Shown here: piece by piece, positions 27,884 through 63,416 of the stretch
Position numbering within the stretch: position 1 is the stretch's first letter
Layout of the letters: each line of letters begins with the position of its first letter
Assembly (NCBI GenBank): GCA_964016885.1
Contig: OZ024743.1
Location: 369,644,001 to 369,708,000 of the forward strand
Direction: 5' to 3'
Length of the DNA stretch: 64,000 nucleotides
Origin: Eledone cirrhosa
Lineage: Eukaryota
Notes under the pieces: generated by a model
The model's database searches: none
What the model saw: only the letters and a program-made list of their open reading frames with translations
Told to the model about the DNA's origin: nothing
Position numbers and translations under genes: made by a program

Positions 27884-27920
27884 TTAAGGAGGTCACAGAA
27901 TGTGATGAAAAGTTTTGACG
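27884..27920 (+). ncRNA. Degenerate hammerhead ribozyme relic
   Basis: TTAAGGA-G-GTCACA-GAA-TGTGAT-GAAA: stem II resembles that of the 36402 motif, but the core is mutated. Confidence 0.3.
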
Positions 27921-28231
27921 AACTAACTAATAACTAATAATAATAATAAAGTTGAAGTAAAATTCAAATGTGTGTATGTGTGTTTTATTTGCGAAATTGG
28001 TGAAATAACTATTCACAAATATAATATATATATATGTCAGTAGACGAAAGACAAAAAACAGTAAACAAAAACCATGGGCGGAGGTGGTGAGAGTGAACCT
28101 CAGATCGCTGAAGCTTACGGAGGAGATGACGAAGGACTGTGACACATGGAGAGATGGTGTGCTGAATAGGACCCGTCCCACCCTTGCAAGCAGGGAAAAG
28201 CAGACGTAGAATGATGATGATGATATATATT

Positions 28232-29230
28232 CTAGCTGATGTACCCAGCATCGCGTGGGTAAACATAATAAAACAGGTAGAAGAGAAAATGACTTGGATG
28301 TTTATCTGATTTATAGTTTGAGGTGAGACCGTGGTGTGACAAGCAAAAAAAATAACAGTATAAAATCTTCCAAATACACCAAATTCTTTGTTTTACTGTT
28401 AGTGCATAGGATATGAAGATTTCTAGGTGTACTCATGAACAACCTACATATAACTGTCTGTGGGGGTAAAAACCAATTCTCTCATTCAATTATATAACTT
28501 TGAGACTTTGAACCTGAGCTTTCTTTATAGTCTTAGCAAAACTGACTCTAACTAGGAACTGACGTCTTGAGAATTTGAACGGCAGCTTGGTAGAGAGGAA
28601 TCTTGGGAATAAATGCATTTTCTCATTGATAATTGCCTCCAAGAATAGTAACCTCTTCCTCATCTGCCTGACTGTAAAATGTGTGTCATTGGATAGAAGT
28701 AGCGAGTCCATATTTCTCAAAAGGATGTGGAAGTTCCAATATTTTAAATTATACATATATATATAGATAATTCTATATATATATGTGTATGTGTTTGTCT
28801 GTGTGTAAACCAATGTTTGAATCGGAGAAGCTGGCTGCGAAACATTTACATATATGTATGTTTAGATGTATATGTTTCATTCTATTCTCTGTGTATCTGA
28901 TTAAGCATTTACGTGAAGATGTGTGTGTGTGCATGTAACTTACTAAGGTGTAACGTACGTACGTATCGAACACGCTAATGCACACACTCTCAGACACATT
29001 TACACTCATATACAAAATGTGATATCGTCGTTGTGTTATAAAATATCCGTTTACCTATAGTTGTCTATAGTACATTATTTTAGATAAAGTGTTTTATTGC
29101 TTTAATCCATATGAAAATAAAAATTATATGTTGACACTCTGCTACCTTGTAAAGTTTAATTTTATTTGGTCGAGCCGTTTGGGAATGCATAAGGAAAAGA
29201 CAAACAGACAGACAAAGAATTATATATATA
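28232..29230 (-). mobile_element. Internally deleted Helitron with RepHel Pif1-helicase remnant
   Basis: 3' hairpin ACCCA..TGGGT plus CTAG on the minus strand. ORF 28490-28813 contains LPFKFSRRQFLVRVSFAKTIKKAQVQSL, a decayed form of the Helitron helicase motif RRQFP..LAFA.TINK.QGQSL. Confidence 0.85.
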
Positions 29231-29394
29231 TGTATATATATATATATATATCGTTTAGTGTCTGTTTTCCCAGCTTGCAACATGTGTGTGTGTGTATATA
29301 TATATATGTGTGTGTGTGTGTTCATATATATATTCATATAATATATATATATATTCATATATTTCCAAGTTGTGTCGGGGAGTAACCACAAGAT

Positions 29395-29790
29395 CATCAT
29401 CGTCATCATCATCGTTTAACGTCCATATTCCACGCTTGCATGGGTTTGGACGGGAGTTTTCCCACTTGAGGCAAGAGTGGTTGTCTTGCTCGCATAGGAC
29501 TGTCTGGCGGGTTTTCTACAGCTGGATGCCCTTCCTAACACCAACCACATTTACAGTGTGGGACTGGGAGGTTTTACCGTGTTATCTACACGGCCACATT
29601 ACAGCGTGGAGTGTGTGTCTTTTTGTCGTGACACCTACACGACCTCATTTGTTTTGGCCTGGATGTTGTGGTACCAACATAACTTTACATTGAAAGGGGT
29701 GGTGTGGATGGGGTGGGGGTAGTGGGACGGGGGGTGTATTTTGTTAGAGGTGCCTACTGACTGTAGTAGGTTTTACTTTGTATTTAGGTC
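29395..29790 (-). mobile_element. 3' UTR/tail fragment of RTE family B
   Basis: Near-identical to 50000-50390 and 35049-35455. Confidence 0.9.
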
Positions 29791-29836
29791 AGATAGAAAA
29801 GGTTATTCAATCCATTGGTAGAGTATAAGTATGTTT

Positions 29837-61366: not shown

Positions 61367-61655
61367 CCTAACTCGTCCCATGGCCTGAGTGCTCTACCAC
61401 TACAGATATTACCTTCCAGTGTTCTACCACTATATATATATATATATATATATATATACAATATGTTGAAAAGGTAACACACTAGAGAGAGATACAGTGC
61501 GCCATCATTAAAACAGGAAAAAACCACCAGTGTATGGAATCTATATATGTATAATATATATGTGTATATATATGTATATATATATGTATATACATGTATA
61601 TATGTATGTATATATATATATGTATATATATATGTATATATATATATATATATAT

Positions 61656-61977
61656 GGAGGCACATGGCTTAGTGGTTAGAGCATTGGCCTTGCAATCGAA
61701 AGGTTGTGAGTTCAATTCTCAGACCGGGTGATGTGTTGTTTCCTTGAGCAAGACACTTTATTTCACATTGCTCCAGTTTACTCAGCTGTAGAAATGAGAT
61801 GATAGGACTGAGGTCCCTATCATTCGACTGTAAAGTGGTCGTGTAGGGGCCACGACAAAAAAGCACCCAGCACTTACTATAATATTAGGAAGGGCATCCA
61901 GCTGTAGAAATCAAGCCAGAATCAGTTCCCGTCCCACCCTTGCAAGCAAGGAAAAGCGGACGTAAAATGATGATGAT
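61656..61977 (+). mobile_element. tRNA-derived SINE, family 2 (full length, RTE-type tail)
   Basis: A-box TGGCTTAGTGG, B-box GAGTTCAATTC, body CCTTGAGCAAGACACTT and AGGAAGGGCATCCAGCTGTAGAAA, tail matching the RTE family A 3' end. Confidence 0.9.
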
Positions 61978-62312
61978 ATATATACATATGTATATATATA
62001 CGGATATATATATATGTATATATATACTTGTATGTATATATCTACTTGTTTATAGATATATGTTTATTGAAAGAAACAAAGTATTAATATGAAAGGTCTG
62101 TTTGGGAACTGGTTTTGAATTGACCAATAGAAAAGAGTTAGAGGTCAAGTTGATAGAATAACAGTAGTAGAACTTGATGCTAGGAGTGGAGGAATGTAAA
62201 TTTATGCTTTGAATGAAATGAATACAATGGGGAAGAGAAAGATAGGGGTTATAATGAGGTCAAATCAAGGAGATAGTGAAGGAGTCCTAAAGAATTTGTG
62301 TTATTAAAAACT

Positions 62313-62879
62313 GCTTTTTTCTTAGAGTTATTTAATTGTAAGAGACTACTCTGAGTTTCTAACTCACTATATATTTGTCGGCTCCATCATGTACAGCTAA
62401 TTTTAATGTCCTGTCAACCAGGCTGCTATTTTTAGAAGCAGGGAATTTCGAGACAAGCTGGGTTCTGAAAACACGTGCGATGATTCTTATCACAAACAAT
62501 TCAGTCTCTAATATATATAAGTGGAAGGATCACTAATTTCTCAACAACTACTGATGAGCAGAGAAGAGTGTGAACTTCACTTAATAAGATGTTGCGAAAC
62601 AGTCTCCAATACTGTCTAGTTGTTACCAGGCGATTTGCCCAATATAGGTCTGTTATTTTTCTTAATTTAATATTTAAAATTAAGTCTAACAAACCATATT
62701 GCTGTAGTTAGTATTTTTTCACCCTAGCAAACTTGGTCTTTACGATTCGAACACATGTATGTTTATATTAATGTTCATCTCTCTTGTTTATTCAATTATA
62801 TTGTACGGCTCGGAAAAGCTTTTTTCTTAGAGCTATTTAATTGTAAGAGACTACTCTGAGTTTCTAACTCACTATATAT
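62313..62879. repeat. 62-bp direct repeat (62313-62374 / 62818-62879)
   Basis: GCTTTTTTCTTAGAG.TATTTAATTGTAAGAGACTACTCTGAGTTTCTAACTCACTATATAT twice, one mismatch. Confidence 0.85.
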
Positions 62880-63380
62880 ATATGTATATATATATATGTA
62901 TATATATATGTGTATGTATGCATATGTATGTGTATATGTACATATATATACATATATATATATACATATACATATATATATATAAAAACTTAATTGTTAT
63001 ATATATATACATATACATATATATATATATACATATATATATATATATATATACATATATATACATATACATATATATATATATACATATATATATATAT
63101 ATATACATATATATATACATATACATACATATATACATATATATATATACATATATATACATATACATATACATATATATACATATACATATATACATAT
63201 ACATATATACATATACATATATACATATACATATACATATATACATACAGATATATATATATATATGTATATATATACATATACATATATATGTATGTAA
63301 AAGGTAAACAGAAATAACACGATCGGTACATTATTTGGAAGGAATATATTAAGTTAACGCTTGATATAGCAGGAAGAGGG

Positions 63381-63416
63381 TCTTAACGTTTCGGACGCTC
63401 GTCCTTCATCAGAAGA
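63381..63416 (-). ncRNA. Minimal type I hammerhead ribozyme
   Basis: TCTT-CTGATGA-A-GGAC-GAGC-GTCC-GAAA-CG-TT-AAGA: intact core, palindromic AACGTT stem III typical of dimeric minimal hammerheads. Confidence 0.9.

Follow-up and report, generated by a model that had tools for sequence, protein, structure and literature searches.

Hammerhead motifs in a nuclear-receptor intron of Eledone cirrhosa are probably the tails of many Penelope-like element families at ordinary genomic density

How does a single intron of a nuclear-receptor gene come to hold a crowd of hammerhead ribozyme motifs? The question is raised by a 64,000-nt stretch of Eledone cirrhosa (assembly GCA_964016885.1, contig OZ024743.1, positions 369,644,001 to 369,708,000; here called the window), which is AT-rich, contains many (TA)n tracts and lies in a 379-Mb contig of a 3.0-Gb genome. 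A preliminary description of this DNA reported a swarm of about 10-12 sequence-diverse minimal hammerheads between positions 27884 and 63416 (the span), and ascribed them to a system of Penelope-like elements (PLEs) and retrozymes that targets TA microsatellites and has a donor family with reverse transcriptase (RT) and endonuclease (EN) at 36258-39221. The reading proposed here, which we hold with good confidence, is that the motifs mark the 3' ends left by many separate insertions of PLEs and of their non-coding dependants, at a density normal for this genome.

A strict descriptor of the type I form, which demands exact CUGANGA and GAAA, UH, both of stems I and II and a stem III closed by A-U, found seven motifs in the window, all inside the span, with cores starting at 36441(-), 46862(-), 50947(+), 55263(+, with one stem I mismatch), 59188(-), 62551(+) and 63412(-). 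Block-wise dinucleotide shuffling (n=100) gave a mean of 0.09 motifs in the window (maximum 2) and 0.03 in the span (maximum 1). The observed frequency is far above that of shuffled sequence; the type I motifs are real and chance is excluded, while self-cleavage of those with intact cores is a prediction. All six motifs previously called intact pass the descriptor, at positions that mark an end of the motif and not the start of the core, and a seventh, 62551(+) with its 5-bp stem III hairpin, had been overlooked. Among the sites taken for variant or decayed copies, 27884, 40242 (core 40273), 41022 (41075) and 61333 (61366) were rightly judged, and a fifth decayed or variant copy, 63783(-), lies just outside the span; 51173(-) and the region ~43840-43950(-) proved to be something else and are treated below. 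Stem III is fully self-complementary in 41 of 65 strict motifs; 62551 has a true hairpin and 36441 an internal mismatch. A microsatellite lies within 300 nt 3' of 61 of these 65 motifs, compared with 40% of random positions, which bears out the proposed targeting of (TA)n.

Every motif of the window does sit in one nuclear-receptor intron. Position 5288 is the last of a coding exon, and the following exon starts 21,757 nt past the window end (L013:1757), giving an intron of 80,468 nt, and the same two exons are consecutive in P0004, the closest full-length homologue (zf-C4 and Hormone_recep). This intron is not special. The same descriptor found 47 motifs in 39 arbitrary stretches of 10 kb (0-3 in each of 10 shuffles) and 29 in 20 further stretches, 15 of these in one stretch, so that the pooled background is 76 motifs in 59 x 10 kb, or 1.29 per 10 kb (bootstrap 0.80-1.95). 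The probability of at least seven motifs in 35.65 kb is 0.21, and that of at least 11 in 80 kb is 0.37. The full intron holds 11 strict motifs, six sense and five antisense to the host, and the flanking 100 kb on each side hold 6 and 5. Motif density in the span and in the intron is that of the ordinary genome background, and because the two are equal the claim of a swarm falls. The motif count correlates with (TA)n content (rho 0.55, 39 stretches). If the background stretches, taken at round coordinates on chromosome-scale contigs, are representative, the genome would likely carry ~390,000 motifs, with a range of 240,000-580,000.

What are these motifs part of? Five families, namely A, B, C, D and a family called U4C after its core, are 5'-truncated PLEs with coding relatives of their own, and three, H, F and X, are non-coding head-to-tail units of ~0.5-2.1 kb; the earlier idea of several families with PLE and retrozyme origin is thereby upheld. 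The 3' end is fixed in each family, lies ~65-320 nt beyond the motif and borders on (TA)n; the 5' ends are ragged in most families. Inverted partial copies are common across families. Within the window only the motifs at 36441 and 51214 stand beside PLE coding sequence, as had been noted. A colinear endonuclease frame lies upstream in 3 of 19 other copies of family B, whose endonuclease resembles that of family A, and in 7 of 19 of family D; for family C such a frame was found in none of the 19 closest copies and in 2 of 16 after an upstream walk. The stems keep pairing, as had been claimed: in a 17-row alignment of family C, 95.3% of cells are paired and double changes occur in 8 of 20 pairs, a level reached in 1 of 500 shuffles. 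A perfect palindrome (55164-55210) marks the junction of an inverted and a direct family C copy, and similar fold-backs occur in many C and X-type copies.

Family A is a young PLE with an intact open reading frame (ORF), and the source of its own motif only. The window copy is flanked on both sides by (TA)n. Among 48,803 candidates, 60 scored matches have 98-100% identity, and in the 10 best loci, window copy included, a hammerhead always follows the ORF. Ten full-length copies, picked for long frames, all contain frames of 1,274-1,294 aa in the layout pLTR-ORF-pLTR (pLTR, pseudo-long terminal repeat); seven have the hammerhead in both pLTRs and the other three have a shorter upstream repeat, and opposite-strand pLTR pieces, that is, inverted 5'-truncated partners, accompany six. 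Downstream of the RT lies what we take, from a sequence motif that Pfam did not confirm, to be a GIY-YIG endonuclease, and the CX4CXXC linker before it would by this motif place family A in the Neptune/Nematis type. The depth of a DNA run over the element, which is no measure of copy number, falls from ~5,100 at the 3' end to ~70-100 in the 5' part, in agreement with 5' truncation. The RT-EN element at 36258-39221 is not supported as the single donor of the set, B, C, D and U4C each having GIY-YIG-coding relatives of their own.

No upstream coding sequence was found in 13 other copies of family H, in 10 of which the unit's own 3' end directly precedes its 5' start, with 13-19 nt of it kept in two more; inverted pieces stop ~70 nt short of the 3' end. 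This combination of partial tandem, inverted copy and tail is the PLE layout on a non-coding unit. By eye, the family H alignment shows no covariation. Family F, for which no endonuclease or RT match was found, has a head-to-tail junction in 3 of 16 copies; its window motif carries a private G8C, and 12 of 13 other copies are intact. Retrozymes are recognized by units of 150-450 nt, arranged as dimers to multimers, with two complete type I motifs, and H, F and X all fall outside this definition: their units measure ~500 (H), 570-790 (X) and 2,100 nt (F), H copies consist of one unit plus a fragment, and the motif of X is not of type I. The 5' ends of family E are clustered, and no coding relative was found among 13 copies. 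Elsewhere in the genome, an arbitrary 10-kb stretch (L233, G000:C28:110000001-110010000) contains 15 strict hammerheads, all from one family, together with decayed ones and is apparently a tandem retrozyme array, and at another locus (L245) three motifs are spaced 310 nt apart.

These features can be accommodated in one scheme. A PLE endonuclease would nick AT-rich DNA such as (TA)n (compare the available parts of PMC11167929 and PMC4209133), and RT would begin internally on the RNA, close to the pLTR and immediately 3' of the ribozyme, and mostly stop early. Internal RT initiation has been shown (PMC11167929). With such a start and such early stops, a short motif-bearing tail would be copied far more often than the ORF, and motifs would likely pile up because the hammerhead lies just behind the presumed start point. 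Single motifs from truncated PLEs, with a palindromic helix III, are also what PMC4209133 mostly describes. The hammerheads would cut tandem precursor RNA to unit lengths, mostly as dimers formed through the self-complementary stem III, and the non-coding units would rely on a PLE protein acting in trans, with tandem or circular RNA as the template. Once in the intron, the copies are probably inert passengers.

Several points weigh against this reading. Three of the 17 rows of the family C alignment were picked by the descriptor (the other 14 by flank homology) and four truncated homologues were dropped. Family E has no coding relative in its 13 copies and no resolved tandem junction. The genome searches return closest copies only, and the background consists of 59 stretches at round coordinates, one with 15 motifs. 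Pfam gave a sub-threshold RVT_1 only in the family A frame of the window and nothing in the full ORF, and the endonuclease and PLE-type calls come from sequence motifs and from tblastn baits taken from this analysis. Furthermore, the RNA run (seven runs were listed, one of RNA with a share of 0.07) yielded for family A a single 147-nt piece of depth 2 in the ORF, which is uninformative either way.

Could most motifs instead be stand-alone retrozymes, copied in trans by the single RT-EN family at 36258-39214? Families H, F and X are indeed non-coding and head-to-tail, E lacks a coding relative, and A is young with intact ORFs; yet B, C, D and U4C reach endonuclease frames of their own, three of them of a PLE type unlike A, and their 5' ends are ragged rather than fixed, so that we regard this explanation as improbable. 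Less probable still, and rated as very unlikely, is that the host retains the cluster for a purpose of its own, for instance to adjust splicing by cleaving the receptor pre-mRNA. Eleven strict motifs in one intron, six of them sense, might suggest it, and the 62551 motif is sense to the host pre-mRNA with stems long enough to act as a monomer; against this stand the background density without strand bias, the private decay of window copies such as that at 41075, and the membership of every motif in a high-copy repeat. Chance matches in AT-rich DNA, for which one might cite the shortness of the descriptor, the lack of any hammerhead family in Rfam (among 150 listed of 161 window matches at E<=1, and at gathering score in eight loci) and monomer minimum-energy folds that often miss the three-way junction and were not used as evidence, have a negligible probability, being refuted by the shuffles of window and background alike and by stems that covary around an invariant core.

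Against the background of truncated PLE tails, two sites of the window depart from the canonical motif, and cleavage at either is a prediction. The first, 51173(-), had been called variant or decayed. C occupies core position 4 in every readable copy (16 best loci, 14 at first reading and the other two later), and a pattern accepting C or U gave 6,093 matches against 0 in the control, with C4 in 96 of 100 listed. The U4C subfamilies differ from one another at N7, at H17 and in loop II. Two base pairs, one in stem II and the one at the centre of the stem III palindrome, show changes in both partners. Since position 4 is part of a CpG, decay would turn the C back into U. The reading as a decayed copy is ruled out by the fixed C4 and by the two-sided stem changes. 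Of 15 other copies, two are colinear with the element into the endonuclease remnant, at 80-81% over 1.35 kb, and an endonuclease continuation is present in 1 of 20 pattern loci. Compared with two other loci (L240, L251), the last 250 nt of 51133-52774(-) are 96% identical and the upstream 1.35 kb 80-81%, a difference suggestive of either exchange of the 3' end among subfamilies or its tighter conservation. The same core change is known from a viroid hammerhead variant (cited in Perreault et al. 2011, PMC3088659, as far as its text is available), with activity that is reportedly lower in vitro but sufficient in vivo. In contrast to the viroid case, the change is here fixed in several retrotransposon subfamilies with at least 6,093 genomic copies. 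A literature search, which did not include Lunse et al. 2017 on PLE hammerhead variants, returned no report of U4C in PLEs.

The second site, 43852-43951(-), was listed in the preliminary description as a possible variant or decayed motif. All core letters are present, and their blocks run in the order cleavage site, GAAA, CUGANGA, which is that of type SGC; readings as decayed type I, as type II and as type III were rejected. Stem III has 7 bp, stem I 5 bp, the linker 4 nt and stem II 2 bp. A descriptor for this form gave two matches in 854 kb of unselected DNA, this site and a weak one, and none in 8 shuffles. The close family X comprises 1,816 candidates, and a pattern excluding it gave 514 more against 0 in the control. 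Of 50 distinct copies, 33 have at least 4 bp in both stem I and stem III; N7 varies freely, as does H17, which may be C, A or U. An alignment of 25 rows, all from copies whose 5' part is complete, has 95% of its cells paired and 18 cells with double changes (0 of 500 shuffles), while only 3 of 17 pairs covary, all of them distal, a count that 254 of 500 shuffles reach. Stem II consists of two invariant G-C pairs, which in most rows the search pattern itself had prescribed. A leader helix of 3 bp is 95% paired and does not covary, and there was no sign of the published fourth stem that links stems I and II at their far sides. On 8 close copies RNAalifold, which cannot draw pseudoknots, gave a long hairpin without covariation. 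No coding sequence was found upstream of the motif in 11 and in 30 loci with non-Naiad baits, and a head-to-tail junction lies upstream in 4 of 30 X-type loci. In L252-L281 a conserved hairpin occurs just 5' of the leader, and a closing helix may join the leader to a conserved site ~25-45 nt 3' of the core.

Taken together, 43852-43951 is a candidate for a non-circularly permuted type-SGC hammerhead, with cleavage as a prediction. Type SGC was described from environmental sequences (HRIMA-1; Eckert et al. 2023, PMC10085705, in its available part), and a search on the term 'type-SGC' found nothing beyond that paper. Family X shares with HRIMA-1 the block order, a stem I of 5-6 bp and the short linker between stems I and II. 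It differs in residing in a high-copy animal repeat and in having just two core-proximal pairs in stem II, which is apparently extended by the 5' leader strand, and a stem III prolonged by an extra helix. The portion of the PMC8557442 supplement at hand lists an octopus Naiad that is targeted to (TA)n and annotated with 'HHR_half_core'.

How does the whole compare with known systems? Minimal hammerheads in PLEs are already known, and the value of the present case is in its scale and in its two variant motifs, U4C and permuted. To judge from the accessible text of Cervera and de la Pena 2014 (PMC4209133), the hammerheads of metazoan pLTRs resemble ours in the type I order and in a helix III that is short and self-complementary. 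In both, A9 is often followed by an additional base, one genome holds many families, the motifs are mostly single and derive from truncated copies, and pairs on opposite strands lie a few hundred nt apart. The load is ~2,000-9,000 there and an estimated ~390,000 here; several families here have a helix III of 3-5 bp and lack G10.1-C11.1, and that text describes no U4C family. Canonical EN+ PLEs, in the available parts of Craig et al. 2021 (PMC8557442) and Frangieh et al. 2024 (PMC11167929), have the same pLTR-ORF-pLTR layout with RT followed by GIY-YIG, the CX2-5CxxC linker (seen in family A; a Neptune/Nematis trait), inverted 5'-truncated partners, two classes of 3' end and microsatellite targets. 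Family A differs from them by an Asn-rich N-terminal insertion and an ORF of ~1,270 aa, its putative clade being judged by the linker motif. Non-LTR retrozymes (Cervera and de la Pena 2020, PMC7229834; Li et al. 2026, 10.64898/2026.07.22.740005; both in part) resemble H, F and X as non-coding, hammerhead-bearing, head-to-tail units with PLE-like ends; their units are of 150-450 nt, against ~500-2,100 nt here, where a unit plus a fragment mostly takes the place of multimers. The estimated load is above the counts seen in these sources for axolotl (up to 120,000; PMC7229834) and Xenopus (9,000 minimal motifs). A literature search, with most subscription papers outside it, found no study of cephalopod hammerheads, and neither the word hammerhead nor ribozyme occurs in the part of PMC13282606 at hand.

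What PLE hammerheads do is still an open question (PMC8557442), and their reported activity is only low (PMC4209133), each according to the available text. We give about an even chance to the broader proposition that this is a genome with hundreds of thousands of PLE-borne hammerheads, including two working forms that standard searches would miss: a non-circularly permuted, pseudoknotted type-SGC ribozyme in a non-coding animal retroelement, which may be the true nature of the 'half cores' of Naiads, elements supposed to lack hammerheads, and a U4C core kept through several subfamily expansions with stems that covary, although its CpG would easily revert. If so, the SGC and U4C forms would make it possible to test directly whether PLEs depend on RNA self-cleavage for their copying, and activity of a type-SGC ribozyme from an animal genome would widen the known range of the form. 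In addition, the presence of many young families together (canonical, U4C and permuted, autonomous and non-coding) lets cleavage rate be set against copying success. The coordinates of all features are collected in Table 1.

Table 1. Features of the window, with positions counted from its first letter
Feature	Position	Strand	Remarks
Family A, 5'-truncated PLE	36258..39214	-	RT-EN frame open 36669-39212, 847 of ~1,270 aa
Intact type I hammerhead, 3' pLTR of family A	36397..36451	-	core 36441
Decayed A-like motif	27878..27925	+	A-likeness by eye; BLAST relative L022 at 78%
Intact type I hammerhead, family B	63375..63422	-	core 63412; 3' end of truncated PLE
Decayed family B relative	40240..40277	-	core and GAAA both changed (40273)
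Intact type I hammerhead, family C	50937..51005	+	core 50947
Intact type I hammerhead, family C	55253..55318	+	core 55263, one stem I mismatch
Inverted partial copy of family C end, joined to the 55263 copy	55086..55169	-	
Intact type I hammerhead, family D	59125..59198	-	core 59188; 3' end of truncated Penelope/Poseidon-type PLE
Family E type I hammerhead, intact, stem II long	46763..46872	-	core 46862
Type I hammerhead-like motif, family-wide U4C core	51173..51218	-	core 51214
Broken Penelope/Poseidon-type PLE	51133..53800	-	endonuclease remnant ~52550-53800, 1.3-kb 3' region, motif near 3' end
Family H unit	62316..62875	+	unit of ~500 nt at 62376-62875, with a 60-nt copy of its 3' end in front
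Intact type I hammerhead, family H	62541..62626	+	core 62551; 8-bp stem I, 5-bp hairpin stem III
Family F 3' end	40830..41215	-	non-coding unit ~2.1 kb; motif core 41075
Candidate type-SGC permuted hammerhead, family X	43852..43951	-	3' end of non-coding repeat ending in (TA)n near 43780
Putative SGC parts: stem III', H17, stem I', stem II'	43931-43925, 43924, 43923-43919, 43914-43910	-	
Putative SGC parts, continued: GAAA, stem I, core	43909-43906, 43887-43883, 43882-43876	-	
Decayed copy	61330..61371	-	core and GAAA intact, stem I lost (61366); intact relative in L067
Variant or decayed motif outside the span	63745..63790	-	core 63783 with altered A15.1; L052 has it intact, L015 has the same alteration
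Nuclear-receptor exon, second of DNA-binding domain	5147..5288	+	3' splice donor opens the motif-bearing intron
LINE-type fragments (LINE, long interspersed nuclear element)	30649-31566	-	RVT_1, PHD, Exo_endo_phos (among the five fragments)
LINE-type fragments	47760-48603, 48750-50000, 53755-54837, 2169-2948	+	

The preceding zinc-finger exon of the receptor lies ~29 kb upstream of 5147-5288, and the coding exons (5147-5288 and those in L023, L013 and L014) span ~125 kb and match a 1,041-aa protein at 82-98%. A genome search with PF00104 gave 27 matches, none on the window's contig, although ligand-domain exons lie in L013-L014. Frame fragments of LINE-type RT and endonuclease (RVT_1, PHD, Exo_endo_phos) occur in the same intron and upstream of it. 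Two near-perfect hairpins, 59486-59573 (~90 nt) and 57928-58047 (~120 nt), are probably remnants of miniature inverted-repeat transposable elements or of inversions; weak, sub-threshold Rfam miRNA matches fall there, and the miRNA matches of the window were dismissed as microsatellite noise. Finally, at 9870-10824 a 159-nt unit without a hammerhead core is repeated six times in tandem, its copies 97% alike.

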